Origin: Candidatus Latescibacterota bacterium
GTDB lineage: Bacteria > Latescibacterota > UBA2968 > UBA8231
DNA length: 64,000 nucleotides
NCBI GenBank assembly: GCA_965217585.1
Contig: OZ244561.1
Span: 5,824,001-5,888,000 of the forward strand
Direction: 5' to 3'
Shown: positions 1,814-53,940 of the stretch, one piece after another
Position numbering within the stretch: the first letter of the stretch is position 1
Layout of the letters: each line of letters starts with the position of its first letter
The notes under the pieces: model-generated
What the model was told of the DNA's origin: nothing
What the model saw: only the letters and a program-made list of their open reading frames with translations
Databases searched by the model: none
Translations under genes and position numbers: made by a program

Positions 1814-3769
1814 ATGAACCCAATGCAATTGTGGACGTCCTATCTGCTGCCCTTGCCGCACGAGATTCGCATTGCCGACAGCGTCCGCTGTAGGCCGGGC
1901 GAAGTGGGTATTGCGCTGCGGGACCAAGCTGGGCCAATCGAGCAGCAGGGTGCCGCCGAGTTGGAAGCACTCTTCGTTGAAAAGGGAAAAGCACAGCCGG
2001 ATGGTGGAGCCTTTACCATCGACATTGGCGTGGCTCCGGCAAACAGCGCGGCCACGGAACGGCTCCAGAGCTTGAAGAACAAGGCCCAGGCGTACCTCAT
2101 TGAGCCACGGGGACGAGATGGTTTGGTGCTGACGGGTTTAGACGAGCGCGGTGTGTACTACGCCTGCCAGACCCTGATCCAATTGCTCGAACCCGAAATG
2201 AGCCAAGAGCAGGTGCACATCCCCTTGGCACAGGTGCTCGACTGGCCCGATATGGACGAGCGGGGCTTGTGGAATTTTCCCGAGCCTGCAACTTGGATCC
2301 CGTGGCTGGCCACGCTCAAATTGAACTACGGCAAAATGGCCTCGACGCAATTGCACCCCATTGAACGCGGTCGGCGCAACCGGGCCACCATCGCCCGCGA
2401 ACAGTTCGAAGCGGCGCGGCAGCGGGCGTTCAATTATCTGCCCTACATTCTGCACCTCAACTTCCTGCACGACTGCGGCCTTTTCAGGACCTATCCCGAA
2501 CTGGCCGGCAAGGGAGACGGGGCTTTGACTGGGCGCTATTTCGCCCACAAGGCGGGCAATCAGCACCGGGTTCCCTGCGCTGCGCAACCGCTACTGGTGC
2601 AAATTCTACAAGAGTGGATGGAGGATATCGCCGGGCAGGGGGCCGAGGAAATAAGCTGCTGGTTGAGCGAACGGCCGGGGCAGTGCGGCTGTCTGGAATG
2701 CTCTGCGGTGGGGCAGTTCGTGCTGGAGGCGCGGGCTTTTGTCGCGGCTTGGCGGCGGGCCCAAAAGCGCTGTCCCAATTTGCAGATTCGCATCTTTTTA
2801 TCGACCACCACCACCGTGCGCAACTATCGGGTGCTGGACGAGTTGCCTCCGGAGGTGAAGGTCGAGCGGGCCTGCGTCACCGAGCTGGAGAGGGTGCTAC
2901 ACCGGCCGCGCGATTTAATGGCCAATCCGCTGCTGGACCACTATGCCGCTGAGGGGCGCTGGATCGCCAGCTACGATGTGCCCATTGCGGCTAACGGCAA
3001 GGTGGACACGCCCGAGTTCAAGGTGCCGCAGCGCTCGGCTCACCGCATGCGGGATTACGTCGGCCAACTGGTGCGGCGGGGCTATAGCGGAGCGTACGCC
3101 ATGATGGCTTGGGGTGGTCCAGAGCGTCAGATTTGCAGCTTCAATATCCACGCCTTGGCCGAGTGGGCTTGGAATATGCAAGGTCGTGACGAGACGGAGT
3201 TCGCCTTGGCGTGGGCACGGCGGGAAGGCTATGCCCATCCAGAGGCCGTGGCCGAATGGGCCGCCTTGATGGGGCCGGTGGAATTCGACGTGTACGATTC
3301 CGATTTTCCGATATGCTATTCTTGGGGCAAGGCCGCGGAGATGGTGCGGCAGCGGCAGCGGCCTTATTTGGGCGAGGGGATGTTCCGCTATTATCTCACT
3401 GCCGAGGACTTCGACGCCAAAGTCGCGATCTGCGACCGGGCTTTGGAAATTGTCGAGGGCCTTGGGGAAGCGGAGCTGGCCCACGAGACGCGGGTGGTGC
3501 GGTCCTATGTGGAATTGGCGCGCGGCGTCTATTGGGTAGCTGAACAGATGGCCACGCTCGACTTAGGGGATATGGCAAACCAAGCGCTGGTGCGCGGCAG
3601 TCTGGATCAGTTGCAAAAGGCGGGCCAAGACAATGTCCAGGCCATTCGGGATTGGCGCGCCGGCTTGGGCAGCGAGCCGTGGCACTACCGGGTACACGAT
3701 GCTATGAAGGGCACGGAGACGACCGTGGCGGAGATCGTCCAATGCGTCGCCGACTGCTACTTGTACTGA
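1814..3769 (+). CDS. Hypothetical glycoside hydrolase with GH20-type zincin-like N-terminal domain
   Basis: LLPLPHE...QAYLIE...GLDERGVYYACQTLIQL...DWPDMDERG is typical of GH20b/GH67 N-terminal domains; start uncertain. Confidence 0.7.
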   Translation: MNPMQLWTSYLLPLPHEIRIADSVRCRPGEVGIALRDQAGPIEQQGAAELEALFVEKGKAQPDGGAFTIDIGVAPANSAATERLQSLKNKAQAYLIEPRGRDGLVLTGLDERGVYYACQTLIQLLEPEMSQEQVHIPLAQVLDWPDMDERGLWNFPEPATWIPWLATLKLNYGKMASTQLHPIERGRRNRATIAREQFEAARQRAFNYLPYILHLNFLHDCGLFRTYPELAGKGDGALTGRYFAHKAGNQHRVPCAAQPLLVQILQEWMEDIAGQGAEEISCWLSERPGQCGCLECSAVGQFVLEARAFVAAWRRAQKRCPNLQIRIFLSTTTTVRNYRVLDELPPEVKVERACVTELERVLHRPRDLMANPLLDHYAAEGRWIASYDVPIAANGKVDTPEFKVPQRSAHRMRDYVGQLVRRGYSGAYAMMAWGGPERQICSFNIHALAEWAWNMQGRDETEFALAWARREGYAHPEAVAEWAALMGPVEFDVYDSDFPICYSWGKAAEMVRQRQRPYLGEGMFRYYLTAEDFDAKVAICDRALEIVEGLGEAELAHETRVVRSYVELARGVYWVAEQMATLDLGDMANQALVRGSLDQLQKAGQDNVQAIRDWRAGLGSEPWHYRVHDAMKGTETTVAEIVQCVADCYLY

Positions 3770-3782
3770 GGGGTCATTAGGT

Positions 3783-5612
3783 GTGAGTGAGCGGATAAGT
3801 CGGCTATCTACCCTTGTAAGTCTCCTGCCGCGTTTGCTGGCGTTTATTTGGCGAACCAGCCCGTTCCTCACCTCTGTTGCCGTGCTGCTGGCGATCGGTA
3901 ATGCCGCAGTCGTTCCTTCCCAGATTTGGCTTACTAAGGTCATAATCGATCAGATCGCCGAAAACGTATCTTCAGCTATAGAAGGCAGCTATGCGCTAAC
4001 CAACTTTGTTCTCCCAGTCGCTGGTATCGTTGGCATTTGGATACTTGGCGTAATTACTCAATCTCTTGCCGTGCATGTCCGGCGGCTTCTTGGCCAGCGG
4101 AGTAGCCACCGGGCACGAATGCAGGTGTTTGCCAAGATGGCGGCGTTGGACCCGGCGCTCCTTGAAACTCCTGCTGTGCATGACTCATTCAACAATGCAC
4201 TGGAGGAAACAGAGCAGGTTCACGAGACAGCGTTCTTTGTGTTCGGTTGGATTTCTGATCTGTTGTCCTTGGTTGCAATAATCGGACTGCTCGCACATAT
4301 ACATCCTGGGGCGGTCGTGGTGATCATCCTCACTGCTGCCCCTGGAGCAATTGCACAGGCTGGCTTTCTCGCCCATTACTACAACATAGTTCGCGGAAGA
4401 TCTGAACTACGTCGCCGGGTCCAGTACCTTGGCGACCTCTTATCGAACGCGCCAGGGCTCCGTGAACTAAGGCTCTTTGGGCTAATAGAATACTTGTTAG
4501 ATCAGTATCGCCGATTGTGGAAAGTACAACATGCTGATGACCGCAACCATTGGCTGCGCCTAGGTCGGACCGATTTGCTTTATGGTTTATTGTCTGTTGC
4601 CGGCACTCTGGCAATTTGGTGTTACGCAATCTTCCGTGGTCTCATGGGCATGATCACCATCGGCGACGTTAGCTTGGCCTTCCAAGCTGCCGAGCAAGGA
4701 CGCTCCCGTTTCAACAGTGCTTTTGGTAGCGGCGCTCGGGGTTTTGAGCGCCTATTGTATGCGTCGAACCTTTTTGAGTTCCTGGATCGGGAATGGGAAG
4801 ATGCTGAAGGAAGACTCCAGTCCCTAGGCACAAAAGGTGTTGCCATTCCTAAGCCCATCCAAAAAGGGATCGAATTCCGCGACGTATCGTTTTGCTATCC
4901 AGGGTCTAATGAGTACGTGCTGCGCAATATTTCCTACCATCTTCCCGTCGGGCATACGACGGCTATCGTCGGTCCTAATGGAGCTGGCAAGACGACGCTA
5001 ATTAAGCTGTTGGTTCGACTATACGATCCAACCGAGGGGGCGATTCTGGTAGATGGAATAGACCTGCGCGAGGTCGAACCCGAGGCGTGGTGGCGTCATG
5101 TGAGTGTTATCTTCCAAGACTTCCAGCGCTACAATCTATCTGCACGGGAAAACATCGGCTTTGGCGAATTGCAGCACTTGCATGACGACGATAAACTCAT
5201 GCAAGCAGCACGCCTTGCTGGAGCTGAGACGCTGATACAACAGTTCCCGAGGGGACTTGACACCATGTTTGGCCGCATGTTCTCCGACGGGATCGAAATT
5301 TCCGGCGGGGAGTGGCAGCGCATTGCCCTTAGCAGAGCGTTTATTCGGGATGCACAAGTAATTGTATTGGACGAGCCGACGGCAGCGCTCGATGCTTTCA
5401 CCGAGCAGGCAATATACGAAGGATTCGCGCGAGCGATTGTCGGCAAAACAGGGTTGTTGATCTCGCACCGATTTCCCACTGTTCGCATGGCGGACAGTAT
5501 TCTCGTTCTAGAGGATGGGCAACCCGTTGAACATGGAACGCACGAGCACCTCATTTCGACAAACGGCCTCTATGCCGAGATGTTCACAACTCAAGCAAAT
5601 CAATACAGGTAG
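3783..5612 (+). CDS. ABC exporter, fused permease/ATPase (peptide/multidrug type)
   Basis: N-terminal TM helices, GPNGAGKT, ISGGEWQR, LDEPT; visibly more AT-rich than the upstream gene. Confidence 0.92.
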   Translation: MSERISRLSTLVSLLPRLLAFIWRTSPFLTSVAVLLAIGNAAVVPSQIWLTKVIIDQIAENVSSAIEGSYALTNFVLPVAGIVGIWILGVITQSLAVHVRRLLGQRSSHRARMQVFAKMAALDPALLETPAVHDSFNNALEETEQVHETAFFVFGWISDLLSLVAIIGLLAHIHPGAVVVIILTAAPGAIAQAGFLAHYYNIVRGRSELRRRVQYLGDLLSNAPGLRELRLFGLIEYLLDQYRRLWKVQHADDRNHWLRLGRTDLLYGLLSVAGTLAIWCYAIFRGLMGMITIGDVSLAFQAAEQGRSRFNSAFGSGARGFERLLYASNLFEFLDREWEDAEGRLQSLGTKGVAIPKPIQKGIEFRDVSFCYPGSNEYVLRNISYHLPVGHTTAIVGPNGAGKTTLIKLLVRLYDPTEGAILVDGIDLREVEPEAWWRHVSVIFQDFQRYNLSARENIGFGELQHLHDDDKLMQAARLAGAETLIQQFPRGLDTMFGRMFSDGIEISGGEWQRIALSRAFIRDAQVIVLDEPTAALDAFTEQAIYEGFARAIVGKTGLLISHRFPTVRMADSILVLEDGQPVEHGTHEHLISTNGLYAEMFTTQANQYR

Positions 5613-5628
5613 GGATTGTACCACTAAC

Positions 5629-5679
5629 ACGACCGTGGCGGAGATCGCCCAATGCATCGCCGATTGCTACCTTTACTGA
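5629..5679 (+). repeat. Diverged duplicate of the last 51 bp (3719-3769) of the upstream hydrolase gene
   Basis: 46/51 identity by manual alignment; encodes TTVAEIAQCIADCYLY* versus TTVAEIVQCVADCYLY*. Confidence 0.93.
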
Positions 5680-5690
5680 AGGAGGGAAAC

Positions 5691-6677
5691 ATGACTGAGC
5701 AAAATAATGCACTGTCCCAGGAAGAAATGGATTTTAAAGCATGGCAAAGGGCCGCCTGGGAAGAGGTTGAGCAGTTCCGCGAGACGGCAGAGGATTATTT
5801 TGGTGAGGACAACCCCCAACATCGACTCGCCGCAGAATTTTTCCAGATGTATCTGGAGAAGAGGCCTTCAGAGATAGCCACAAAGGCTTTGTCCAATGCT
5901 TTCACCATGTGGGGAAATCTGAAGGGCGTCAGTGACCAAGTTCAAGCGGCCCTCAAGCACATTTCTTATACCGAAGATGTGTGGGATGAAGTCAAGTATG
6001 GTTTGTGGAACAGTTCCGCACGTGATGGCCGAGAAAAAGAAGCAATTCTCCTATTGGAGGAATTGGTCGAAAAGGTCGTTCCCTTGAAGAGTCGATCGTC
6101 CTTGCTGTGCACTTTAGCCGATATTTGGGAACTCGAAGGTGAGACGGGAAAAGCTCGTCGAGGATTTGAACAAATCATCGCATGGGATGCTTCTGAACGG
6201 CATGTAGATCACGCCCGAGGACATCTGTACGAGCTTGACACTTTAAACGTCGGACAGTTGGCCCCTCAATTCAGGTTGTCCGATATAGATGGCAATCACA
6301 TAGATCTTGCAGATTATCAAGGTAAAGTCGCGGTTTTGCATTTTTGGAGTACAACCTGTAGCGGGTGTAAATTTATTTACCCTTCTCTGCGCAACATTGC
6401 CCAGGAGTATTCTGAGGACGAGGTAGCCCTCATTGGTATATCAGATGATATAGACTTTGATGCTCTTCGTGCTGCGATAACGGAAGAGCAATTCACGTGG
6501 CCTCAGATATGTGAAGGCAATGGCTGGCAAGATACGGTTTTTAAGCTCTACAATGTGGATAGAATGCCTATCGAGTATATCATTGATCGAGGTGGAAAGA
6601 TAGCCTTTAAATTCGGGGGCGGGGGCAAAGGTAGCGGTGAAGAGCTTGAAGAAGCAGTGCGATCTCTCGTGATTTGA
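5691..6677 (+). CDS. TlpA/ResA-like thioredoxin-fold protein with helical (TPR-like) N-terminus
   Basis: GQLAPQF...GKVAVLHFWSTTCSGCK CxxC motif; AGGAGG RBS. Confidence 0.85.
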   Translation: MTEQNNALSQEEMDFKAWQRAAWEEVEQFRETAEDYFGEDNPQHRLAAEFFQMYLEKRPSEIATKALSNAFTMWGNLKGVSDQVQAALKHISYTEDVWDEVKYGLWNSSARDGREKEAILLLEELVEKVVPLKSRSSLLCTLADIWELEGETGKARRGFEQIIAWDASERHVDHARGHLYELDTLNVGQLAPQFRLSDIDGNHIDLADYQGKVAVLHFWSTTCSGCKFIYPSLRNIAQEYSEDEVALIGISDDIDFDALRAAITEEQFTWPQICEGNGWQDTVFKLYNVDRMPIEYIIDRGGKIAFKFGGGGKGSGEELEEAVRSLVI

Positions 6678-6693
6678 TGAGGTGCAGTGTCAG

Positions 6694-6774
6694 CGTCGTG
6701 GCTCATCAGGGCCAGCCCACCCTCTCCGGTGCCCAGCTTGCCGACGATGGAGAGCTTGGCCACGCTCGCCGCAT
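6694..6774 (-). repeat. Orphan internal fragment of the argE-like gene (copy of 16661-16741)
   Basis: 81 bp with about 3 mismatches; encodes AKLSIVGKLGTGEGGLALMSHD. Confidence 0.92.
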
Positions 6775-7885
6775 GCCCGCCGACACGCTCTGCCCGCTAT
6801 TGTCGGTAGCATCCCATTCCACTACACGTAGCGCCCCGGGAGCTGGTGTTTGGCAACGAGGGAGCGGACAGATTGCCCTACCACGTTGAACGGATTCGGG
6901 AAGTTATCCGCCAGTGCAAAGGCGGCTGGATTGGCCTTGCCCGCTGCGCCGAAGAGATCGCCAAAGCTCAAGGCCGGGTTGACGGTGATAGAGAAGGTCA
7001 ATGTGGCGGCGGCTCCTGCGCTGTCTTGCGCCGTGTAGGTGATCTCGACGGCCCCATCGGTGGCGGCTGTGGGCGTGCCCGAAATCGTCCGCGTGGCCGC
7101 GTCAAACGACAGGCCAGTAGGCAAGCCTAAGACGCGGTACGTTACCTCGCCTTCACCGCCCGTAGCTTCCGGCAATACCAGCGCACTAATCGCCGTACCA
7201 GCGGTGTATGCTTGGTCTTCGACCTCTTCGGCGAAACCGAAGGCCAGCTCTCCATCGTCCTCTTCGCCATCGTCCATCTCGCCGTCGGAATCGGCCGTCG
7301 CTTGACCGATGGCGGTAAAGGTTTCGGGTTCAAGCCCCTCAACGGTAGCCGTAACGGTGTTGGTCCCCGGATCGCTCCCCAGCGTCAGCGTGCTTCTGGC
7401 TCGACCATTGGCATCGGTGGTGGCGGTGGTGGCCGAGAGCGTCCCTCCACCGGCCGTGACCGAAAAGGTGACGACCGCCCCGGCAAAGGCCGACCCGTTT
7501 TGATCCAACACGGAAACGACGAATGGCTTGGCCAACGCCGCGCCGACAGTGCCTTCTTGTTCATCGCCGGAGACTTTCGTCAAGGTATGGGGCATGGCCT
7601 GCTCGACGGCGGTTATCGTCTGTCCGCCAGTCCACTCAGATAAATCCCACAGTCGTACTATGTAAGATGAATTCTCTGCCAAAAATCTCATGTCGGAAGA
7701 AAAATCCAATTCCTCAATCCGCCCGACCGGCGGGAAGCTGACGATAGGCTTTCTTGTAGCCACATCCCATAGCTTGACCGATGAACCCCCGATCGTACTG
7801 GCTTGACCGGTTCCTCCCTTCACACCATCTAAATCAACCCATCTTGTCTGCGACGCCGACGCGGACGCCAAAAACCTGCCGTCTA
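6772..7885 (-). pseudogene. Orphan C-terminal remnant of a WD40/Big-1/Ig/FlgD-type secreted protein
   Basis: No start or signal peptide; partial WD40, Big-1 domain nearly identical to the one at about 9085-9440, He_PIG-like Ig domain, and a deleted and frameshifted NFPNPFN...EWDATDNSGQSVSAGM tail. Confidence 0.8.
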
Positions 7886-10900: not shown

Positions 10901-11463
10901 ATTTACTCCTCCGGCCTTATAACCATCTACATCAATTGTGCCTGTACTATTGTCAATGACGATGAGGTAATCATTGGCCAAGACATCAAATTGAAGCGGA
11001 CCTTCGCCAAAGAATATCTCGTCAAGCACCTCTATAGTAGTGTTGTTATCATAGTGCCTATGGGATGCTGCCCATCGACTCGATGCACCAGCGGCTCGCC
11101 TTGGGCATCGGTTTCAATGCGGAAGGTTGTGTTGCCGTAGCCATGCGCTTGCATCTGCTCGGCATAAAAGGTCTGAACCCGGCGCATCATCGTTTTCATT
11201 TCATCAACCACTTCTTGACGATACGGACGGTCATTGGGCAAGAAATAGATCATCCGCACCGTGCGCTCCTCACCCACGTTCCGATCGGCCAGCCGCTTGC
11301 CAGCAGAGAGGGGGTGATCGCGCTGCCACCGCTCGTAATCGAACGGCAAGCAGAAATGCACGCTATCAGCCGGCGAGGGCGACGCATGGGCCACCGCCAG
11401 CGGCGAAAGAATCAGGCCGATTAACGCGCAAAGGGGGTACGATGTGAAGCAATACCGTTTCAT
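7907..11463 (-). pseudogene. Secreted Zn-metallopeptidase/WD40/Big-1/Calx-beta-like/T9SS-A-type CTD protein, frameshifted near 11061
   Basis: Signal peptide at 11463 with AGGAG RBS; HELGHTFGLWH zinc motif; about 7 SFSPDG WD40 repeats; YPNPFN...KFTLLR end. One added base after CAT CCC fuses the two ORFs (HP[D]RHYDNNTTIEVLDEI). Could be a sequencing error. Confidence 0.8.
8880..9060 (-). repeat. Duplicated acidic linker (EDDGELADDEASGEDQPESEEQPT x2)
   Basis: Near-identical DNA repeat ggctgctcctcggactcgggttgatcctcgccggaggcctcgtcatcggc occurs twice. Confidence 0.85.
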
Positions 11464-11854: not shown

Positions 11855-12032
11855 AAGCCTTTCAGATTGGCCAATCTGAAAGGCCTGCGTGAGGGGCGCG
11901 TCGTCCGTCATTGGGTGAGCAGGCACGACAGTGCCCACGGCACCGTGCGGGAGTAAGACACCCCTCACGCTAGGTTGTCGCTCCGAACAGATACAGGGGC
12001 CTTGGGCCCGTATTACAAGTGTGGAGGACAGC
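11855..12032 (+). ncRNA. IS110 bridge RNA (left non-coding end)
   Basis: 5' palindrome 11857-11884; stem 11887-96/11961-70 enclosing CGTCATT and GCGGGA (target guides); second stem-loop enclosing ACAGATAC and TACAAGT (donor guides). Confidence 0.82.
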
Positions 12033-12059
12033 ACCCATTATAACAGGGAGGCTACCAGC

Positions 12060-13001
12060 ATGAAAGTCGTTGCCGGTATAGACGTAGGAAAAAGCAGTCT
12101 GGACGTGTCGGTGTCGGCGGGTCCGGTGCGTCGATTCGACAACGCCCCCGCGGGCCTTTCGGCCCTGGTGGGCTGGTTGGAGCGCGAGGGGGCGACCCAC
12201 GTGGTGTGTGAATCGACCGGGGGCTATGAGCGGGAAGTGGTGCGACGGTTGCGGAGCACGGCATGGTCGGTGCACATAGCGCACCCCAACCGAGTGCGCC
12301 ACTTCGCGCGGGCGGCTGGCCGCCAAGCCAAGACCGACGCGCTGGACGCGCAGATGCTGTCGCGGTATGGGCAGGTATTCGAGGTGCCTAGCTCGGTGGC
12401 GGCGGCGGCGGACAGTGAGGTCCTGCAAGACCTGCTGCGCCGACGCAAGCAGTTGGTGGACCAGCGCGTGCAGGAGCGCCATCGGCTGGACCAAGGACGG
12501 ACCGAAGCCGCCCGCACCTCTACCCAGCGGCACCTCCAGTGGCTGGATGAAGAGATCGGACGGTTGGAAGAGGAATACCGCAAGGCGTTGGAAAACAGCG
12601 GCGAGTTGTCCGAGTCCGCGGCCCTGTACCGGAGTGTGCCGGGCGTGGGCGAGCTGACCGCGGCCACGCTGGTAGTGTATCTGCCGGAGTTGGGGCAGTA
12701 CCGTGGAAAGGAGTTGACCTCGCTGGTGGGACTGGCCCCGTGGTCCAACGACAGTGGGCGCCAGCAGGGGTATCGCTCGATCCGGGGCGGACGGGGAACC
12801 GTGCGTAGGGTGTTGTACCTGGCCGCCTTGTCGGCGATACGCTACAACGACGACCTGAGCCGTTTCTATCAGGGACTGCGCCAGCGGGGCAAGACGGGCA
12901 AGGTGGCGGTGGTGGCGGTGATGCGCAAGCTGCTGCTGTTGCTGAACGCCATTGCCCATCGAGGAACGCCCTGGGTGGAACACCAGGCCCCAGCAGGGTA
13001 G
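12060..13001 (+). CDS. IS110-family recombinase (DEDD RuvC-like + Tnp domain)
   Basis: GIDVGK, CESTGGY, AKTDALDA, VPGVG, GLAPWSNDSG, VAVMRKLL; GGGAGG RBS. Confidence 0.95.
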   Translation: MKVVAGIDVGKSSLDVSVSAGPVRRFDNAPAGLSALVGWLEREGATHVVCESTGGYEREVVRRLRSTAWSVHIAHPNRVRHFARAAGRQAKTDALDAQMLSRYGQVFEVPSSVAAAADSEVLQDLLRRRKQLVDQRVQERHRLDQGRTEAARTSTQRHLQWLDEEIGRLEEEYRKALENSGELSESAALYRSVPGVGELTAATLVVYLPELGQYRGKELTSLVGLAPWSNDSGRQQGYRSIRGGRGTVRRVLYLAALSAIRYNDDLSRFYQGLRQRGKTGKVAVVAVMRKLLLLLNAIAHRGTPWVEHQAPAG

Positions 13002-13328: not shown

Positions 13329-13384
13329 CTACACGCAGGTTTGCGGCGGCCCGTTAGCTTGAGCGCCGTGCGGACCAGCGGGGC
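13329..13384 (-). repeat. Internally deleted duplicate of the argE-like 3' region
   Basis: 13338-13384 is identical to 15931-15977 (47 bp) and is fused to CTACACGCAG, the last 10 bp of the gene including the stop. Confidence 0.9.
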
Positions 13385-13732: not shown

Positions 13733-13851
13733 GGGAGGGAGAAGCGCAACTACGACTTGTCTCGGTTTTTTAGCATAAAGGCCATGACCGCTAGGACCGC
13801 AATAAGCATGACTAAGCTGCCAACGACGGTGATTTTTAGCAAAAGTCTATA

Positions 13852-14711
13852 GAAGCTGTTGAGTTAAAAACGTATCTTTGTAAGTTATTTGGTACCATAG
13901 CCCTATTGCTGTAGGAGGATTCTGTTATGCCAGGGTATCCAAGTGACTTGACGGATGAAGAATGGGCGTTGATCGCCCCTTTTTTTGACCGCCCCGATCC
14001 TCGGGGTAATCCGGGTCGGTATGAAAAACGCGATGTGGTCAATGCCATTTTGTATGTGCTCAAAGGGGGCATCCCGTGGCGGATGATGCCGCTTGATTTT
14101 CCGCCTTGGGATACGGTCTATGATCATTTTCGTCGCTGGAATAAACGCGGCGTGTGGGAGCAAGCCTTGGACTTTCTCAATGAGCAAGCGCGCCTAAAGC
14201 AAGGCAAGAAGCCACAGCCCACCTATGCGCTTTTGGATTCGCAATCGGTCAAAACGCAGTATGCTAGTCAGGATCGAGGCACCGATGGGGGAAAAAAAGG
14301 TCAAAGGCCGTAAACGCCACCTCGCCACCGATACGCTGGGCAATATGCTCGCGATCCAAGTACATGCAGCCAATGTAGCCGATACCAGCCAAGGCTGGGA
14401 AGTGTGTGATCGCGTCGCAGAAAAGTATGATTCGGTCGAAGCCTTCTGCGGCGACCAAGGCTATCGCGGCACTACGGTTGAATTCGTCGAGAACCTGCTG
14501 GGGTTACGACTCGACATCACCTCGAAACCAGCGCAAGGATTCCAAGTGATTCCCAAACGGTGGATTATCGAACGAACCTTTGCTTGGTTGGGTGGATTTC
14601 GGCGCTTGGCCAAGGACTTTGAAATCCTCACCCAATCTGCAGAAAATATGATCCGGATTGCCATGATTAAAATTACCGTCGCTAAATGCATCTGAATAAC
14701 TCAACAGCTTC
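13852..14711 (+). mobile_element. IS5-family element (two-ORF type)
   Basis: Perfect TIR GAAGCTGTTGAGTTA / TAACTCAACAGCTTC with TA target duplication. Confidence 0.92.
13927..14695 (+). CDS. IS5 transposase expressed by -1 frameshift
   Basis: YPSDLTDEEW...DSQSVK and KVKGRKRH...DQGY...RWIIERTFAWL; GGGGGAAAAAAAGG slippery site near 14290. Confidence 0.9.
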
Positions 14712-14999
14712 TAAGGCTCTAGCGATGGCTCGTAGACCAATAAGAACGATACTCCGATGGCAAGAACGATGATCCATGTTGCTAGACGTAGGCGATGAAT
14801 GGGTTTGGGCAGGTTGCGCCTGAAGAGGGAAGGAATGCATTCAGCAGCTATATAAAAAGCTGTTCCTAAGACTATTTCTAAGATTAGAAGCGACATAAGC
14901 GTCTCGTAGTGTTCTACCTGACGTGTGTGTCGGCTGGCGTTCTTGCAAGAAGCGGGTCGTGTGATCGTCGTACCCAACAGAACAGCGCTTCAACTATCC

Positions 15000-15076
15000 C
15001 TCTACACGCAGATATGCTGGATGAAGCGGGCGTAGAGATCGACGCTGGTGCGCAATTGGTCGGTTTTGATCCATTC
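15000..15076 (-). repeat. Diverged duplicate of the argE-like 3' tail (15751-15827)
   Basis: 72/77 identity; EWIKTDQLRTSVDLYARFIQHICV* versus EWIKTDQLRASVDLYARFIDHICV*. Confidence 0.93.
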
Positions 15077-15721: not shown

Positions 15722-15752
15722 TTCGCCTCTCAGGGTTTTGAGAAGACAACCT

Positions 15753-16883
15753 CTACACGCAGATATGATCAATGAAGCGGGCGTAGAGATCGACGCTGGC
15801 GCGCAGTTGGTCGGTTTTGATCCATTCGTTGGCGGTGTGGGCTTGGGCAATGTCGCCTGGGCCGAGGACGATCATTTGTTTCATCTTCTCGACAAAAGCC
15901 ATGCCGTCGGTGCCGTAGGCCACCGTGGTGGGTTTGCGGCGGCCCGTTAGCTTGAGCGCCGTGCGGACCAGCGGGGCGTCCACCGCGGTATAGAGTGGCT
16001 CGCCGCGATGCTTGAGCGCGAAGTCGAGGCCGTGCTTTTCCGCGCTTTTGCGGCTTTTGTCGATCAAATCATCGACGTCGATGCCGGGCATGGGGCGGTA
16101 GTTGAGGGTGCAGATGCTCTGGGCGGGGGAGATGTTGGTGGCGCGGTTGTGATCGTTGATGCCGATGCACCACTCGGAATGCGGCGGTGCGAATTCCTCG
16201 TTGCGGTAGCGGCGCGCGCTGAGCACCCGCTCGTTGAATCGCTTCATCTCCGCGAGAAAGGGAATCATCTTGAGGTTCGCGTTGATGCCCTTCAAGGTGC
16301 TGGTGTGCGCGGGGCGTCCCTTGGCGGTGACTTGGATGGCGAGCGAGCCTTTGTGGGCGTGGACGACGCGGAGGCTGGTGGGTTCGCAGATGATGCCGCA
16401 GCCGGTGCTGGCCTCGGCAAAGAGCTTGGAATGGGCCGTGACCTTTTGCGCGCCGACGCCGTGAACCTCTTCGTCGGCTGTGACGACGATGTAGAGCGGG
16501 GCAGTGAGATCGGCGGCCTTGAAGCGGGCGGCCGCGCAAATCGAAGCGGCAAGAGGGCCTTTCATGTCGCAGGAACCGCGGCCGTAGAGCTTGCCGTTGG
16601 CCTCGTAGGGGTCGTAGGGATCGCGGTGCCAGCCGTCGGCGGGATTGGCGGGTACGACGTCGTCGTGGCTCATCAGGGCCAGCCCGCCCTCTCCGGTGCC
16701 CAGCTTGCCGACGATGGAGAGCTTGGCCACGCCCGCCTCATCTGTGTAGGGTACCTCTTCTATTTGGAAACCAAGCTGGTCTAAGACTCCAGCTATGTGT
16801 TGGGTGACTTCGACGTTGCTGGTTTGGCTTTCCGAGGGATAGGCGACTATTGCCTTGGTCAGTTTGACGACATCGAGTTTCAT
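15753..16883 (-). CDS. argE: M20 metallopeptidase, ArgE/acetylornithine deacetylase-like
   Basis: SHDDVVP, GRGSCDMKG, DEE, ICEPT, YGTDG, GPGDIAQAHTANE. Confidence 0.8.
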   Translation of the reverse strand: MKLDVVKLTKAIVAYPSESQTSNVEVTQHIAGVLDQLGFQIEEVPYTDEAGVAKLSIVGKLGTGEGGLALMSHDDVVPANPADGWHRDPYDPYEANGKLYGRGSCDMKGPLAASICAAARFKAADLTAPLYIVVTADEEVHGVGAQKVTAHSKLFAEASTGCGIICEPTSLRVVHAHKGSLAIQVTAKGRPAHTSTLKGINANLKMIPFLAEMKRFNERVLSARRYRNEEFAPPHSEWCIGINDHNRATNISPAQSICTLNYRPMPGIDVDDLIDKSRKSAEKHGLDFALKHRGEPLYTAVDAPLVRTALKLTGRRKPTTVAYGTDGMAFVEKMKQMIVLGPGDIAQAHTANEWIKTDQLRASVDLYARFIDHICV

Positions 16884-47648: not shown

Positions 47649-47658
47649 GGACAACGTC

Positions 47659-49482
47659 TTACTCCTCGCCGTACCACTGCGCCTGCAAAGCCCATAAGCG
47701 GGCGTATTCTCCTCCTTGAGACAGCAATTCGCCGTGCGTCCCATTTTCGAGCAGGCGGCCCTCTTTTAGAACCAAGATCCGGTCGCACAGCCGGGCGGAG
47801 CCCAAGCGGTGGGAGACCACGATGGTGGTCCGCTCGCCGGATATGGCGAGGAAGCGCCGGAACACGTCGGCCTCGGCCTGGGGATCGAGCGACGCGGTCG
47901 GCTCGTCGAGTACGATCAGGGCCGCGTTGCGCATGAACCCCCTCGAGATGGCGACGCGCTGCCACTCGCCGCCGGACAGTTCGGTGCCGCCGGCAAATTC
48001 CTTGGTGAGGAGGGTGTGGTAGCGTTCCGGTAGTTGCTCGGCGATGGAGGCGGCTCCGCCTTGGTGGGCAGCGCGCTCGACGGCAGCTTGATCACCCATT
48101 CGCTCGGTGCGCCCCAAGCCGATGTTCTCGCCCAGAGAAAAGGCGAAGCGGGTGTAATCCTGGAACACGGCGGTCGATTGGTCCCAAAGGCCGTTTCGGT
48201 CCGCTTGGTTCAGATCAATGTCGTCGTAGAGCACTTTTCCTTCCGTGGGGTGGAACAAGCCCAACAGCACCTTGACGAGCGTGGTCTTGCCCGAGCCGTT
48301 GGCACCGACGAGGGCTACGCGCTCACCGGGCTGGATGGTGAATGAGATGCCGTCGATTGCTAGGCGTTCCGCCTGTGGATAGCGAAAGGAGAGACCGTTG
48401 GCCGCAATCGGGACCTCGCCGACGCGGTCGATTGGCACGCCATCCTTTGGTTCTTCCGGGCCTAGGTCGAGGTAGGTGAAGAGATCGGCGATGTACAGGA
48501 GGCGATTGGCGAGATAACCAAACCGCCAGAAGACCAAATCGACATGCGTACTGACTTGCTGCAGCGCCACCATCATGGCGGCGAATTGCCCAGGGGAAAG
48601 GCCGCCGTTGGCCACGGCCCAAGCCGACCAGCCGATGCCGACGGCCAGACCGGTCAGACTAAAAGTCGATAGCAAGATATTGACCAGAGACTGCGAGCGG
48701 CGCTGATGAAAGAGCTGGTCGGCCACCTGCCAGTAGAGATGCTCCCACCAACCGAGTAGGGCCGATCCCAGGTTGAAGACTCGCACTTCCTTGGCGGCGG
48801 CGCGCTCGGTGAGAATACGCTCCAAGTAGGCCCGCAGGCGCTCGCGCTGGGTCTGCTCGCGCTTGAGGAGAAAGGTATTCTTCTCTTGGAGCACCCGCGC
48901 CAGTGGCGGCGGCACCGAGACTAAGGCGATGGCGACTAGGAGCAGCGGATTCCACAGCCCGACGACCAAGGCGACGGAGACGGCCGTCAGCGTTCCGGTG
49001 ATTATTGTATTGATCTCGCCGATGAGGTTGAGAAAGAAGCCGGGCGTAGCCGCCTCCTGTGCCCGGCGCAGCACGTCGTGGAAATCGGCGCGCTCGAAGG
49101 TTTCAAGCCGCAGGACGCTTGCTTTACGCTGAAGTTGGGCGAGTAGATGATCCTCCATCTCTTGTTTTAGCCGCTCGCGGAGAAGGGTACGGGTCCAGAT
49201 GAGGATTCCTATATCGGCCAAGGTCAGCACGGCCCACAGGGAGACCCACACCAGCATGTCCGCCACGGGTAGGCGGCCCTCGTACACCTCGAGGCTGCGA
49301 TCGAAGAGTGCCCGCACGACCCACACCAACGCGGCCGGCAGCAGACCGATGGCGAATTGGAGCACCAATAAGACGATGGAGTGGCGGGGCTCCGTCTGGA
49401 CCATCCACCATAGAAATCGCAACAGTGTGCGCACGGTAGGCGGGCGGGTCGCCTCTGCGTTCTGTAGGGCTACCGGTACCAC
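47659..49482 (-). CDS. ABC exporter, fused permease/ATPase
   Basis: GANGSGKT, LSGGEWQR, LDEPT; GTG start overlaps the upstream ABC gene. Confidence 0.9.
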   Translation of the reverse strand: MVPVALQNAEATRPPTVRTLLRFLWWMVQTEPRHSIVLLVLQFAIGLLPAALVWVVRALFDRSLEVYEGRLPVADMLVWVSLWAVLTLADIGILIWTRTLLRERLKQEMEDHLLAQLQRKASVLRLETFERADFHDVLRRAQEAATPGFFLNLIGEINTIITGTLTAVSVALVVGLWNPLLLVAIALVSVPPPLARVLQEKNTFLLKREQTQRERLRAYLERILTERAAAKEVRVFNLGSALLGWWEHLYWQVADQLFHQRRSQSLVNILLSTFSLTGLAVGIGWSAWAVANGGLSPGQFAAMMVALQQVSTHVDLVFWRFGYLANRLLYIADLFTYLDLGPEEPKDGVPIDRVGEVPIAANGLSFRYPQAERLAIDGISFTIQPGERVALVGANGSGKTTLVKVLLGLFHPTEGKVLYDDIDLNQADRNGLWDQSTAVFQDYTRFAFSLGENIGLGRTERMGDQAAVERAAHQGGAASIAEQLPERYHTLLTKEFAGGTELSGGEWQRVAISRGFMRNAALIVLDEPTASLDPQAEADVFRRFLAISGERTTIVVSHRLGSARLCDRILVLKEGRLLENGTHGELLSQGGEYARLWALQAQWYGEE

Positions 49483-51383
49483 GAGGCTTGTTCCTCCCAC
49501 ATGGCAGCGTACACGCCGCCCTTTGCCACTAAGTCGTCGTGATGTCCTTCCTCGACGATGCGCCCACCCTTGAGAACGAGAATGCGGTCGGCCATGCGGG
49601 CCGAGCCCAGCCGATGGCTGATCAATAGAGCGGTGCGGCCGGCGAGCAGGTCGCCGAACTGCCGGTACACCTCGGCCTCGGCCATGGGGTCTAAAGCTGC
49701 GGTTGGCTCGTCGAGGATCAGCAACTCGGGCTGGCGGATGAATGCGCGGGCAATGGCGAAGCGCTGCCACTCGCCCCCGGAAAGCCCTTGTCCGCCATCG
49801 AGGACGTGTCCTATGGGGGTGTCGTAGCCTTGGGGCAGGCGCGCGGCGATGGCATCGGCTCCGGCTCGTCGCGCCGCGTTTTCTACTACCGCTGGATCGG
49901 GTGGCAGCCACGCTGGCCACAGGTCATTCTCCCGGTCGCTACCGCCGGTTCCGAGGGCGCCGATTCCGATTGACTGGGAGGCCGTGAGTTCAAAGTTGAA
50001 GAAGTCCTGGAACGCAGCGCTGACCGCGCCTGCCAAGCTCGTCCGGTCGATCTCGTCGTAGCAGATGCCGTCCACCGCGATCTCGCCCGATGTTGGTTGG
50101 TACAGACCCAACAGGAGCTTGGCGAGGGTCGATTTTCCCGCGCCGTTCTCGCCGACGAGGGCCACTCGTTCTCCTGGCTTGAGGCGCAGGTTCACTCCTC
50201 GCAGGACGGGACGGGGGTTCTCGGCTTTGGTAGCACTCGCTGCTGGATAGGCGAACCAGACATCTTCGACGGCAAACCCCTCGCGCAGCGGTTTGGGAAA
50301 GGGCCGGGTTGGTTCGCGGTCGGCTGGTGGTTGTTGCAGCCAAGCGCTGTCGTCCTCGGGCAGGTCGAGAAACTCGCGCACATAGCTGATTTCGGCGTTT
50401 TGGTTTTGCAGTGTCATCGAATGGTAGCCTAGGCTGGAACCGGCTCCCAGCATGTCGTCCACTCCCCGGAATAGGGCGACAAAGCGGCCGGACGTGAGGA
50501 GCCGGTCGCCGAGAAAATAGGCCAAAGCAACGGCGACGCCGGCCGAGACGCCGGTGCGCAAGCCGGCGACGGGAAGCTCTCGTCGGACCAGTTGCTTTTG
50601 TTGTCGCCAGAGTTGATCTCGCAATGCCCGGCGCATGGCCTGCCACCACTGGCTCAGCGTCTGATGGAGGGCAAAGAGGCGCATCTCTTTTTGTTCGTCC
50701 CGCCCGGTGAGAATCCCATCGACGTAGTCAGCCCGGCGCATTTCCTCGGTCTGGCCGTAGGTGAAGCTCATGAATCGCCGGCTTTGTTCGATGGACATTC
50801 GGATCTGCGGTACCAGTACAATTAGAAGAGTTAGTGAGATCCACAGAGAGACTGGGGCGAACATGGCCGTAATGGAAAGGACTCGGATGCCGGCTTGGAA
50901 TGTAAGCATGGCCGAGAAGAAGAACCGATCGACCGTGCGCCCCGGATTCTTGGCGCGCTCCAGCCGGTCGTAAAACGCGCTTACCTCAAAGAAGACGAGT
51001 GGCAGCCGGGATGCCTTGGCTAGAAAGCGTTGGCCCAACGCGTGCTCAAGGTTCTGTTCGAGCCGCAGGTGGAGCGCATCCCGAATCTGCCACTGCACAT
51101 CGCTGGTGAGCAGGAGCACGAGCCCAAATGCTATAAGCCACGGCAGAGTCTGTTCAAAGCCAGCGCCCCCTGCACCGGCGGAGGCGACAACAGTGTCGAT
51201 GAGATGCTGGGTTATGTAGATGAGCAGCGCGGGCTGGATGCCTAGGAGTATTTGTACGGCGACGATGCCCAAGGCCGGTGCCCGCCCATGTTCCCAGATG
51301 TGGGCGAGGGTCCAGCGCAGGTTGGTCCATAGGGTCGCCGCGCTCGCACGCCGGTTCCAGAACTCGGGATCGCTTCTCGGCAA
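49470..51383 (-). CDS. ABC exporter, fused permease/ATPase (probable heterodimer partner)
   Basis: GENGAGKS, LSGGEWQR, LDEPT; AAGGAGG RBS before TTG. Confidence 0.9.
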   Translation of the reverse strand: MPRSDPEFWNRRASAATLWTNLRWTLAHIWEHGRAPALGIVAVQILLGIQPALLIYITQHLIDTVVASAGAGGAGFEQTLPWLIAFGLVLLLTSDVQWQIRDALHLRLEQNLEHALGQRFLAKASRLPLVFFEVSAFYDRLERAKNPGRTVDRFFFSAMLTFQAGIRVLSITAMFAPVSLWISLTLLIVLVPQIRMSIEQSRRFMSFTYGQTEEMRRADYVDGILTGRDEQKEMRLFALHQTLSQWWQAMRRALRDQLWRQQKQLVRRELPVAGLRTGVSAGVAVALAYFLGDRLLTSGRFVALFRGVDDMLGAGSSLGYHSMTLQNQNAEISYVREFLDLPEDDSAWLQQPPADREPTRPFPKPLREGFAVEDVWFAYPAASATKAENPRPVLRGVNLRLKPGERVALVGENGAGKSTLAKLLLGLYQPTSGEIAVDGICYDEIDRTSLAGAVSAAFQDFFNFELTASQSIGIGALGTGGSDRENDLWPAWLPPDPAVVENAARRAGADAIAARLPQGYDTPIGHVLDGGQGLSGGEWQRFAIARAFIRQPELLILDEPTAALDPMAEAEVYRQFGDLLAGRTALLISHRLGSARMADRILVLKGGRIVEEGHHDDLVAKGGVYAAMWEEQASWYR

Positions 51384-51410
51384 GCATTCCTCCTTAGCTG
51401 AAAAGCGACA

Positions 51411-51506
51411 ACTAGCGCGGGAGTACGGTAACTTCCACCTCGTCGATGACGACAGCCCCTTCGGGGAGGCCGGAGAAGAGCAAGCGGACGCCGAGGGCAT
51501 TGTCGC
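51411..51506 (-). repeat. Diverged duplicate of the 3' 96 bp (52365-52460) of the GHL10-like gene
   Basis: 89/96 identity; DNALGVRLLFSGLPEGAVVIDEVEVTVLPR* versus ...EGTVVIDELEVTVLPR*. Confidence 0.94.
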
Positions 51507-51532
51507 TGGCTTTGCCCTTCCTTAGGCGGCCG

Positions 51533-51985
51533 TCAGTTTTCCAGCCACGCCTCAATCTCGGTCTTGGTCCGTGCCCACGTTGACGCCAACCCATTCACCA
51601 GATCACGCATCTCTTCCCAGTGCAGCACATATGCGTAGGCTTGCCGGAAGAAGTGCCGGAAGGCGAGGTATGCCTGCAAGGACTCCTTGGTTTCTTTGGA
51701 GATGAGGGAAGGGCGCAAGTCCGTGGCTGCGGCGACTTGGTCCAGCAGGTCCCTATGCCACCGATCTCCCGAAGGCACTTGCTCATCAACGCGCTTGGCT
51801 ACAGTGAGGAAAATACCCTCTAGGCCGGTATAGAACGAATGAAGTACCGATCCCAGTGCAGTCCTCTCAACAATGCTAGGCTCAGTCTTCGCCGACTTGT
51901 CGAGCAATTCCGAGAACTCCGCAAACAGATCCTCAATCTGCAGAATCTCAGAGCGGAGTTGATCGCGCACGATATCACCCAACAT
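51533..51985 (-). CDS. HEPN-domain (HepT-like) toxin
   Basis: LHSFYTGLEGIF, WHRDLL, FRHFFRQAY. Confidence 0.85.
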   Translation of the reverse strand: MLGDIVRDQLRSEILQIEDLFAEFSELLDKSAKTEPSIVERTALGSVLHSFYTGLEGIFLTVAKRVDEQVPSGDRWHRDLLDQVAAATDLRPSLISKETKESLQAYLAFRHFFRQAYAYVLHWEEMRDLVNGLASTWARTKTEIEAWLEN

Positions 51986-52286
51986 GGACAAGCAGCCAGT
52001 GTTTCTGTAGGAAACCAACTAGGCGGGACTCCCGGTCCAAATCGACCAAATCCACGGGGTGTTCCAGTTCAGTCAGTAATTCCCCGAGCAGTGAGAAGAA
52101 GCGCCCCGGCTGACAGCCACGGACCGCTAGGTCTATATCTGATCCCTTTCGAGGGCGACCTTCGGCTACAGAGCCAAACACATGAACCTCGCTGCAACCG
52201 CCTTTTCTGAGAATCTGTACCGCACGTTCGATGTCGGCCCGGTACTCCTCTGGAAAAATCTGCAATTTTGCGGTTTGTTCAGTCAT
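51975..52286 (-). CDS. Minimal nucleotidyltransferase (MntA-like) antitoxin
   Basis: FGSVAEG...SDIDLAV...VDLVDL. Confidence 0.88.
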   Translation of the reverse strand: MTEQTAKLQIFPEEYRADIERAVQILRKGGCSEVHVFGSVAEGRPRKGSDIDLAVRGCQPGRFFSLLGELLTELEHPVDLVDLDRESRLVGFLQKHWLLVHVG

Positions 52287-52365
52287 ACTCTCCAGTTCCT
52301 CCCGACGCAGTTGGAAACCGTTATAGTAATCCAATAAGCTCTATCGCACATGACTAGCTAAAAAA

Positions 52366-53940
52366 CTAGCGCGGCAGCACGGTAACTTCCAATTCGTCGA
52401 TGACGACAGTTCCTTCGGGGAGGCCGGAGAACAGCAAGCGGACGCCGAGGGCATTGTCGCCGTTGCATATAGGCGGCGACGACAGATCGATGATGCAGGT
52501 TGTATGCGCGGGGAGCGGCCGTCCCTGATTTGGGTGCCGGCCGTCGCTGTGCCAGATGTGGCGCACCCTGTCGGCGGGGATGGCCGTGCCGTTGATATCG
52601 ACTTCAATCTGATCATAAGGCCCCAAGCCCGTAGCGCGGAAGAACAGCTTGGCGAAGACGATCTCGTCGAAGTTTTCGTACAGGCGAAAATGATACTGCC
52701 CATAAGGCTGCTTCTCGGTCCGCTCAAGCAGGATATTGTCGTCCCTGACGATCCCACCTGCGGTCATGCCCGGGGAGCCAAAGGCCATAGAACCGCCCCA
52801 CATGGGGTGAAAGAGATAGTGCCGAGCGCCAGCGGCAATTTTGGCCGGATCCCGCAGGTCTCGCAGGTAGCTAAGGGCTAGGGGATACATGGCCTCCGAC
52901 CCTGGATCTCGGGTCGATTTCCAGAAGGCATCCCAGTGCATCTGAAAATTGTACATGGAGACCCCATCGGCACCTTGGCGGGCAAACGAGTGGGCCAAGG
53001 CGCGGTAGTTTTCGAGCGTCAACGGCGGCCCGGTGCGGTCGAGGTTGGCGCAATAGGGGAGGAGGCCGGGGATGAGTTCGCACTTGGTGGCCTTGGTGAG
53101 TTGGCTGAATTCTTGGTGTGGAGCGTTGCAATCCGAATACATGGCATCTTGGGGAGCGACGTAGTCGATGAGCGCTTCCGCTATCCAAGTGGGCACATCG
53201 AGACCGCAGTTGTGGCACTCCTCCAACGCCTCCGGGACGCGGACCCCCAACACTAGGTCGCGGCCTCGGCTGCTTCCGGCTTGGTCGAGCATGTCCCGCA
53301 CTCGCCGGATCAATTCAGTCATAAGCGGTTGGCGCTCGCGCGCTAGGCTTCTATCGCCTTGGGGGGCCGGAAAGTAAAGACCTTCGCGGAAGACCAGCTC
53401 AAGCCCATCTACGTCGAATTGATCGACGACCTCCTTCATCACTGAAAAGAGGTAATCGCGCACCCCATCAAAGGTGAAATCCATCCTGTTGCCGGGAACG
53501 AAGGCCATGCCCTGTGGCATCTCCGCAATTTTCCACTGTGGGTTCTTGTGGAGAAACATCCCTCCTTGGTCGGGCGCGCCGTGGCTGTCGTTCATGCGAA
53601 AACCAGCGAGAAAATTCATCCCGTGCTTGCGCGCTTGGTCGAGCATCACCTGCAGCGGCATGATCCCGTCGTCCATCATGGGAATAAAGCGCCGGTGCTG
53701 GGGACGGGCGTCGTACTCGAAGCGCGGGGAGCGAAAGTACAAGGTCCAGCCGGCGTTATAGACCTCTTGGATAAAGGTATCGGGCCTGTTGGCGGCGACG
53801 TTGTCGATTATGCGCCGCAACTCCTCCGGCTTGGCGGGGTGTGAGGTGATGAGGGGACGCGCTTTGCCCGGGTCAAAGTCGTAGTTGGCATTGCCCGAGG
53901 GGTCGCTGACGTAGATGAGCCTCCATTTGTCGTGCGGCAT
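52366..53940 (-). CDS. GHL10/DUF187-like putative glycosyl hydrolase
   Basis: GFRMNDSH, DGLELVFR, GADGVSMYN. Confidence 0.68.
   Translation of the reverse strand: MPHDKWRLIYVSDPSGNANYDFDPGKARPLITSHPAKPEELRRIIDNVAANRPDTFIQEVYNAGWTLYFRSPRFEYDARPQHRRFIPMMDDGIMPLQVMLDQARKHGMNFLAGFRMNDSHGAPDQGGMFLHKNPQWKIAEMPQGMAFVPGNRMDFTFDGVRDYLFSVMKEVVDQFDVDGLELVFREGLYFPAPQGDRSLARERQPLMTELIRRVRDMLDQAGSSRGRDLVLGVRVPEALEECHNCGLDVPTWIAEALIDYVAPQDAMYSDCNAPHQEFSQLTKATKCELIPGLLPYCANLDRTGPPLTLENYRALAHSFARQGADGVSMYNFQMHWDAFWKSTRDPGSEAMYPLALSYLRDLRDPAKIAAGARHYLFHPMWGGSMAFGSPGMTAGGIVRDDNILLERTEKQPYGQYHFRLYENFDEIVFAKLFFRATGLGPYDQIEVDINGTAIPADRVRHIWHSDGRHPNQGRPLPAHTTCIIDLSSPPICNGDNALGVRLLFSGLPEGTVVIDELEVTVLPR

Follow-up and report, generated by a model that had tools for sequence, protein, structure and literature searches.

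We have analyzed a window of 64,000 nucleotides (bases 5,824,001-5,888,000 of a 7.32-Mb single-contig, metagenome-assembled Latescibacterota genome, G000 in our comparisons), in which three intact genes are each followed by a cassette of other genes and then by a second copy of their own last bases. Sponge metagenomes are among the runs containing the sequence of this window. We refer to the intact genes as anchors and, in each pair of repeats, to the in-gene tail copy as c1 and to the orphan tail copy as c2. The original prediction, made from the letters of the window, had described this gene-cassette-second tail arrangement at the three genes, and all three pairs were recovered at the same positions, with identities of 85-94%. 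One copy of each pair is the 3' end of an intact open reading frame (ORF), and the repeat stops 2-3 nt past the stop codon. By Pfam, the anchors encode a GH20-like protein, an M20 peptidase and a GHL10-like protein, and not polymorphic toxins. The features of the three loci are as follows.

1775..3769, plus strand: anchor gene 1, intact, 664 aa, Glyco_hydro_20b domain (ORF, Pfam)
3712..3772, plus strand: pair 1 in-gene copy c1, ending 3 nt past the TGA stop (repeat alignment)
3783..5612, plus strand: cargo 1, ABC transporter with membrane and ATPase domains, 609 aa (Pfam)
5622..5682, plus strand: pair 1 orphan copy c2, with an identical boundary in G028 (repeat alignment)
5691..6677, plus strand: resident downstream gene, AhpC/redoxin-like (Pfam, sequence)
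14999..15076, minus strand: pair 2 orphan copy c2 (repeat alignment), flank common to loci L002 and L011
15077..15749, minus strand: cargo 2, MazF/PemK toxin ORF (15141-15590) and a short upstream ORF (Pfam)
15750..15827, minus strand: pair 2 in-gene copy c1, ending 3 nt past the TAG stop (repeat alignment)
15753..16883, minus strand: anchor gene 2, intact, M20/ArgE-type peptidase, 376 aa (Pfam)
49470..51500, minus strand: resident downstream gene, ABC ATPase, longest ORF (Pfam)
51410..51506, minus strand: pair 3 orphan copy c2 (repeat alignment)
51507..52363, minus strand: cargo 3, toxin-antitoxin pair of a nucleotidyltransferase (51975-52334) and a HepT-like protein (51533-52018) (Pfam)
52364..52460, minus strand: pair 3 in-gene copy c1, ending 2 nt past the TAG stop (repeat alignment)
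52366..53940, minus strand: anchor gene 3, intact, 524 aa, GHL10 domain (ORF, Pfam)

The repeats measure 61 nt in pair 1 (85% identity, with a 54-nt core), 78 nt in pair 2 (94%) and 97 nt in pair 3 (93%). The longest ORF of the redoxin gene begins at 5652, its start being likely the ATG at 5691 that stands behind an AGGAGG. For the ABC ATPase of locus 3 a start behind AAGGAGG, some 25 nt after c2, looks likelier than that of the longest ORF. The short ORF upstream of MazF has no Pfam match and is presumed to be the antitoxin.

The orphan-tail structure is real DNA and not an artefact of assembly, because independent short-read contigs span one of the junctions and the same structures are found in the assemblies of other species. 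Logan contigs from 4 runs belonging to 2 studies cover positions 14710/14807-15604, that is, the orphan tail of pair 2 together with the MazF cassette, with 0-3 mismatches. The repeat-cassette-repeat arrangement of pair 3 is present in G052 and G026, that of pair 1 in G028 and that of a locus elsewhere in the genome, L098, in G054. A chimera of two strain haplotypes could come to mind, the genome being a single contig assembled from a metagenome and the copies resembling two alleles. However, the repeats (46-246 nt over the whole genome) are far below any overlap used by an assembler, and with the contigs and assemblies just mentioned this explanation keeps next to no probability.

For comparison we used 30 related genomes of the same genus, many of them complete. 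Empty sites, in which a single copy of the repeated segment stands between contiguous flanks, were found in the genus for pairs 1 and 3 and for three loci outside the window (L098, L105 and L112). Anchor gene 1 has orthologues at 88-94% identity in 29 of the 30 genomes. In 5 of these 29 loci (G043, G048, G045, G052 and G042), plus 2 variants, the GH20-like gene runs straight into the redoxin gene (the two are contiguous in L073, L075, L078, L080 and L084), and those empty loci keep a single 54-nt copy. The ABC gene of the cassette is missing from the 7 relatives where the anchor abuts the redoxin gene; G028 and G034 have it, and G054, G039 and G038 have part of it. Four of these genomes (G034, G054, G039 and G038) have the GH20-like gene followed by the ABC gene, or by its start, without an orphan tail. 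Both types of neighbor of this anchor, ABC and redoxin, occur within the genus. The c1 copy shows 0 differences over 54 nt from the allele of G039, in which gene and ABC are adjacent, and c2 is closest to the empty allele of G048.

Two further observations concern the site of pair 1. In G050 (L124, G050:C1:2612360-2616500) it holds another insert, of 253 nt, with a 160-nt second copy of the tail; since this insert is different, the same gene end has been used independently. In run X23, from another study, a contig joins the ABC stop at 5612 to position 5681, skipping the orphan tail; the intervening letters are unknown and the joint may represent a variant without the scar.

Pair 3 is empty in 19 of 21 relatives' loci, where the flanks overlap by exactly the repeat (~97 nt, in single copy), and its cargo occurs in G052 and, carrying an internal deletion, in G026. 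There are 24 relatives of the peptidase at 91-96% amino acid identity, and the MazF cassette was found at none of the 27 relatives' loci holding the gene. In 12 of these 27 a conserved neighbor follows about 90 nt after the M20 stop, and homology past the stop collapses at once among the relatives. The orphan tail of pair 2 is continuous, together with the stretch that follows it, with L002 and in part with L011. Five other genomes of the genus contain the upstream half of the MazF cassette, and at the two junctions read, in G052 (L031) and G049 (L033), it stands directly behind the end of a different ORF. Directly behind the orphan tail in G000 there is a short ORF (14711-14977), common to L002, that matches Cation_efflux in part and is probably what is left of a gene once located downstream.

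The layout is not restricted to the window. We have scanned the genome by a k-mer diagonal search for direct repeats of at least 40 nt and at least 80% identity, spaced 150-20,000 nt, and combined the result with gene calls. A tandem-repeat region near 1.128 Mb, a paralogous ABC cluster at 6.815-6.833 Mb and the rows in which the second copy lay inside a gene or was itself a gene 3' end were removed before counting. This left 39 repeat rows on 36 anchor genes, with repeats of 46-246 nt (median 88), a median identity of 92.5% and a spacing of 551-16,591 nt (median 3.3 kb). The scan, with its 20-nt minimum seed cluster, overlooked pair 1 itself, so these genome-wide counts are lower bounds. The anchors outside the window appear to be ordinary ORFs. 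As a side observation, the stop is TAG in 19 of the 36 anchor genes versus 31% of all called genes (binomial p = 0.011, on home-made gene calls).

As a control of recurrence we used 60-nt pieces of the 4,545 called genes of at least 150 aa, searched at 85% identity or more within 15 kb. The last 60 nt recurred alone downstream in direct orientation for 45 genes, versus 14 upstream direct and 2 downstream inverted; the first 60 nt gave 10 downstream and 16 upstream direct cases and the middle 60 nt 11 of each, with downstream inverted ones not seen for either piece. The tail-scar layout exceeds chance (45 tail-only genes against 2-16 in the controls). The same figures bear on the idea that the orphan tails are leftovers of tandem duplications, the decayed paralogue having been mostly deleted until its tail remained. 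Tandem paralogues are indeed common here, some 45-59 genes having head, middle and tail matches nearby; the locus L113, described below, can be written as a microhomology-mediated duplication plus deletions, and G048 holds at L105 an orphan fragment of at least 371 nt. But the excess belongs to the tails and not to heads or middles, what the relatives have is empty sites with one copy of the segment and not a second copy of the gene, and several precise deletions would be required at every locus, so that we consider such an origin very unlikely.

The position at which the repeats end is also peculiar. In 24 of the 39 rows the end falls between -2 and +7 nt from the stop, against 4.2 expected for a stop at any position of the repeat, and among 200,000 simulations 0 attained 24 rows. 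We suggest that the repeats end at the stop because homology between orthologous alleles with different neighbors ends there; a weaker similarity extends beyond the stop in several pairs. Even for the perfect repeats (98-100% identity) and for the relocated DAO gene dealt with below, the start lies 0-6 nt past a stop codon. Two other explanations were considered and rejected. One was that selection alone keeps the end of the repeat at the stop; both genes would stay intact even with a repeat that extended into the neighbor. The other was that the repeats cover an overlap between the anchor and the next gene, the duplication keeping both intact; it was discarded because the likelier downstream starts follow strong ribosome-binding sites after the repeat, and because many loci have a convergent neighbor that the repeat does not enter.

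The cargo is mixed. At 20 further loci, 32 of the 55 cargo ORFs match a Pfam family. Those of toxin-antitoxin or defence type include GmrSD, DUF5615/DUF433 (twice), PIN_3 with HicB, Uma2, DUF4258, DUF6088, HTH-Peptidase_M78, DUF6932 and HATPase_c_4. The ordinary ones comprise an FAD oxidoreductase, a radical SAM protein, a GFO/IDH/MocA oxidoreductase, SusD with a TonB receptor, a redoxin, ankyrin repeats and an aldo-keto reductase. No pair of restriction (R) and modification (M) genes was found in the cargo, the only nuclease homologues of this sort being GmrSD and the Uma2 type outside the window loci.

The original prediction held that neither an integrase, nor terminal inverted repeats, nor a shared att motif accompanies the cassettes, and on the three points our data agree with it. 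Integrase and resolvase families are represented by 0 of the 55 cargo ORFs of the 20 loci and by none in the three window cassettes; a DDE transposase was found once among the 55 and not in the window cassettes. Over the whole genome there are 5 tyrosine recombinases (PF00589) and 0 serine recombinases (PF00239), none of them inside a cassette, the nearest tyrosine recombinase being ~9.5 kb away from one of the repeat loci. Searching the three window regions for inverted repeats gave 0 pairs at the cassette ends; an imperfect palindrome of the attC type, which an integron cassette with its IntI integrase would have at the 3' end, was not found at the ends of the three cassettes by this search, which did not include a dedicated attC model. 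The repeats have no common motif: the 36 distinct tails score like shuffled sequence and like random gene tails (mean pairwise local score 7.3 versus 7.0), with the exception of two paralogous pairs. Direct repeats that rebuild a gene 3' end are the classic signature of an integrase, and a recombinase acting in trans might use gene ends as att sites; but with no recombinase family in the cargo, so few and so distant candidates in the genome, and tails that are not alike and vary from 46 to 246 nt, site-specific integration is highly improbable. The genome does contain ComEC and two DprA-family matches, and Ku is absent. ComEC and DprA are widespread and their presence is no demonstration of competence.

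What kind of difference separates the two copies? Pooling 38 pairs (3,306 nt) we counted 160.5 synonymous versus 101.5 non-synonymous differences (pS 0.194, pN 0.041, omega 0.19), distributed over codon positions 1, 2 and 3 as 68, 38 and 156, which substantiates the earlier remark that many of the differences are synonymous. As a reference, the whole M20 gene compared with 19 orthologues gave a pS of 0.198 and an omega of 0.135, and its last 75 nt a pS of 0.24 and an omega of 0.19. Judged by their sequences, both the extent and the type of divergence between the copies resemble those of functional orthologues from different species of the genus. This matters for a rival explanation, a duplication in place, in which a staggered break, or a replication template switch that re-enters 50-250 nt back, duplicates the resident sequence on both sides of an inserted fragment and the copies diverge later. 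Empty sites with exactly one copy and both flanks syntenic speak for such an event, and the layout agrees with the one known from restriction-modification genes (PMC2853133). However, if the orphan drifted neutrally, neutral change would make up about half of the divergence, bringing omega close to (gene omega + 1)/2, that is, 0.55 or more, a value rejected by the data (binomial p = 2e-14). Besides, the pS of 0.19 between copies equals that between species (0.20-0.24), even for the MazF cassette, which at the M20 locus is found only in G000, and a random staggered cut leaves the 24 of 39 repeat ends at stop codons unexplained. We favor two alleles over duplication in place because the divergence of the copies matches that of between-species orthologues, and we regard duplication in place as unlikely.

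Some loci outside the window are informative about the order of events. At L105 the order is gene, cassette, tail (89%), PIN/HicB cassette, tail (100%) and flank; the site is empty in ten genomes, and in G037 the gene is directly followed by the PIN/HicB cassette, which is the predicted intermediate. In most genomes the 'cassette' gene of L113 is the native neighbor of the downstream flank, and the orphan tail is a patch of 57-64 nt with an illegitimate joint at a 7-nt microhomology, GAGGGTG; this is the sole case for which the native partner is known. L098 carries a DAO-type FAD oxidoreductase gene (G000:C1:161069-162262) and a 46-nt perfect repeat, and is empty in 5 genomes, while L112 is empty in 1. 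The DAO gene lies at one shared 'home' locus in both genomes checked, G043 and G048. This home site is empty in G000 (G000:C1:2340171-2340179), with a 9-nt overlap; the two genes there are convergent and their stops overlap in CCTAGG. L097 yielded no clean empty site, its left flank being a dispersed repeat. This ~200-nt stretch (L097:1-200, G000:C1:8760-8960) has up to ~10 copies per genome, at 70-82% identity across the genus, and is either a dispersed repeat or the conserved end of a multi-copy gene.

On balance, we consider it somewhat probable that each pair is the two-allele scar of a one-sided homologous recombination, similar to homology-facilitated illegitimate recombination (HFIR), with sequential displacement. 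Donor DNA from a related species or strain would carry the same gene with different genes downstream. One ordinary homologous crossover would take place inside or upstream of the resident gene, and the far end would be joined illegitimately, at a microhomology, from a few dozen to about 250 bases before the resident stop. The gene would acquire in this way the incoming tail, with the cargo next to it, and the resident tail with its stop would be displaced downstream, still attached to its old neighbor. Repeated events would stack cassettes and orphan tails. Host recombination of the RecA type would suffice, with no recombinase encoded by the element, and uptake of the ComEC/DprA type could be the route. 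The layout, the empty sites, the lack of recombinases and motifs in the cassettes examined, the coding type of the divergence and the genome-wide excess are observations; the order of events, the donor, the route of uptake and the chemistry of the joining are our inference.

Several facts weigh against this explanation. The donor arrangement for the MazF or the MNT/HepT cassettes at these genes was not found among the relatives' loci. The two copies of pair 3 share rare variants within G052, within G026 and partly within G000, for which a duplication in place or a gene conversion fits better than a simple two-allele origin; a duplication in place followed by allelic replacement or gene conversion would fit them too. 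Four repeats are 98-100% identical and hence carry no signal of alleles; they also speak for a duplication in place. The gene calls come from a home-made ORF scorer and the counts may move by a few. Another difficulty is the DAO gene, the core of which lies away from the L098 anchor in 15 genomes of the genus. The ends of its cassette carry 22 and 37 nt of unmatched filler, as a duplication in place would have it; the gene was relocated with filler and must therefore have been newly placed beside the anchor on at least one occasion, and still the distance from the stop to its beginning is 2 nt. Finally, two fragments of the M20 gene lie at a distance from it in the window. They had been predicted as further argE fragments and do match the gene:

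13338..13384, minus strand: internal M20 fragment, 100% identical to 15931-15977, missing from 26 relatives' loci
6694..6774, minus strand: fragment of the M20 5' region, 96% identical to 16661-16741, missing from 26 relatives' loci

These fragments need extra deletions, and no single simple event fits them. At some loci a duplication followed by a deletion is also conceivable. Of the original claim that the pairs are two alleles produced by tail displacement, the part that stands is the orthologue-like divergence and the affinities of pairs 1 and 2, while pair 3 and L112 do not clearly fit. The accompanying expectation, that the downstream copy should match the empty allele, agrees with c2 of pair 1 (nearest to G048) and with c2 of pair 2, which together with its flank is like L002/L011; but at L112, where the copies differ at 7 sites, the empty allele has the c2 state at 3 of them and the c1 state at 2. 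Allele comparisons over 97 nt (pair 3) and 136 nt (L112) are not decisive.

A different way of spreading such units would be a Campbell-type cycle, in which recombination between the repeats excises a circle made of the cassette and one tail, and a single crossover re-integrates it into a naive genome. Carriers do share the boundaries of the repeats (G000 and G028 at pair 1; G000, G052 and G026 at pair 3; G000 and G054 at L098), empty sites are exact, as excision through the repeats predicts, and the coding type of divergence fits as well. A comparable life cycle has been hypothesized for restriction-modification units (PMC2853133). On the other hand, shared boundaries are equally expected from common descent or from ordinary two-sided recombination, the origin of the first copy is left unexplained, and the same MazF cassette stands behind different genes in other genomes. 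Neither a circle junction nor an excision joint of the MazF cassette appeared among 15 of 49 joints, taken from contigs only, a result that weighs neither way. We find this cycle improbable as the origin of the scars.

A wider claim would follow from one-sided recombination, namely that in these sponge-associated Latescibacterota recombination of this sort with co-resident congeners is a routine way of gaining genes, with dozens of events per genome and the 3' end of any gene as landing pad. This is possible, with chances that we place a little short of even. Bolder still, the perfect repeats and the placement of the DAO gene would mean that something beyond selection directs the joins to the ends of coding regions.

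Some features of the window lie outside the cassettes bounded by repeats. Between the internal M20 fragment and the orphan tail of pair 2 there is an insertion sequence (IS):

13850..14711, plus strand: IS4/5-like element, 862 nt, with DUF4096 and DDE_Tnp_1 ORFs (Pfam), outside the repeat-bounded cassette

This element is polymorphic in the population, contigs of X19, X20 and X22 joining 13849 to 14712. X23 has a joint of 13325 to 15750, with unknown letters in the gap. An IS110-family transposase gene is located at 11931-13001, and in each of the four runs the contig depth summed over 11.6-13.2 kb exceeds that of the flanks, by factors reaching into the tens; this region is probably a multi-copy element. 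Upstream of it, a stretch of 371 nt within an Ig-domain gene (7279-7649, in the gene 6822-7871) reappears at 91% identity at 9072-9442 in the adjacent gene 7907-11029, which codes for 1,040 aa with WD40/Big_1 matches and has internal repeats of its own of ~120 nt.

The meaning of these scars goes beyond the window. About 36 scarred anchor genes, together with 30 relatives that show empty, intermediate and stacked states, make the gain of genes through one anchor countable in a wild lineage. The comparison of synonymous and non-synonymous differences between copies is simple and portable, and separates two alleles joined from a segment duplicated in place. For annotation there is also a warning, as short orphan gene ends beside toxin-antitoxin or defence cassettes are neither att sites nor assembly errors. 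If one-sided recombination is indeed routine, orphan tails would be a datable fossil record of donor, recipient and order of transfers.

Similar structures have been described before. Most measurements of HFIR come from the laboratory, where it is a rare event; toxin loci are the main natural setting for which it has been proposed, and restriction-modification genes the main one for long target duplications. Earlier work on H. pylori is cited in the paper on these duplications (ref. 37 of PMC2853133). The statement in the original prediction that the process was not recognized as described was overstated, given that PMC2853133 and PMC5361080 report this arrangement with cargo of other kinds. 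Furuta et al. (2010; PMC2853133) described restriction-modification units that lack mobility genes and have undergone 'insertion with long target duplication'. As in our case, the insert is smaller than 20 kb and has no mobility gene, the direct repeats exceed 30 bp, vary in length between sites and can be imperfect, and an 'empty' relative gives a single alignment of the repeat; in H. influenzae, two of the repeats that they report also overlap a gene 3' end. Their screen demanded R and M genes, the DNA-breaking activity of which was suggested as the cause. Unlike those units, the Latescibacterota cassettes carry toxin-antitoxin and defence genes along with ordinary metabolic, transport and surface genes, their repeats are pinned to stops, the anchor genes are about 36 in a single genome and the copies diverge like orthologues.

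Kirchberger et al. (2017; PMC5361080) proposed HFIR with sequential displacement for the effector-immunity arrays of type VI secretion systems (T6SS) and for Rhs loci, citing de Vries & Wackernagel 2002, Prudhomme 2002, Meier & Wackernagel 2003 and Jackson 2009. The parallels are the single homologous anchor in a conserved gene, the non-homologous join at the other end without an integrase, and the older 3' parts that shift downstream and can stack, as at L105. In those accounts the anchor is the conserved 5' part of a toxin, and the displaced toxin tip is retained with its immunity gene under selection. In Latescibacterota, by contrast, the anchor is any ordinary gene, and the displaced tail of 46-246 nt has no evident function.

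Other systems share single traits. The minimal mobile elements of Neisseria are recombinase-free cassettes between conserved genes, exchanged through transformation and host homologous recombination; unlike the Latescibacterota scars, they are exchanged through two-sided homology, with no duplicated gene end. Integration by integrases into the 3' ends of genes or tRNAs also restores the end by direct repeats, and arrays of partial targets can build up, but at our loci there is no integrase, shared core or tRNA target. Transposons and IS are recognized by inverted repeats and a short target duplication of fixed size, whereas here inverted repeats were not found and the duplications vary between 46 and 246 nt. 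Short-patch double illegitimate recombination resembles the patch of 57-64 nt at a 7-nt microhomology in L113; it produces microindels without cargo and is no general account of kilobase cassettes. Limited word searches of the literature retrieved no description of the layout on ordinary genes at genome scale, which does not prove its absence. We consider these structures a known kind of scar, the novelty being its occurrence on ordinary genes, with mixed cargo and at the scale of a genome, in an uncultured symbiont lineage.

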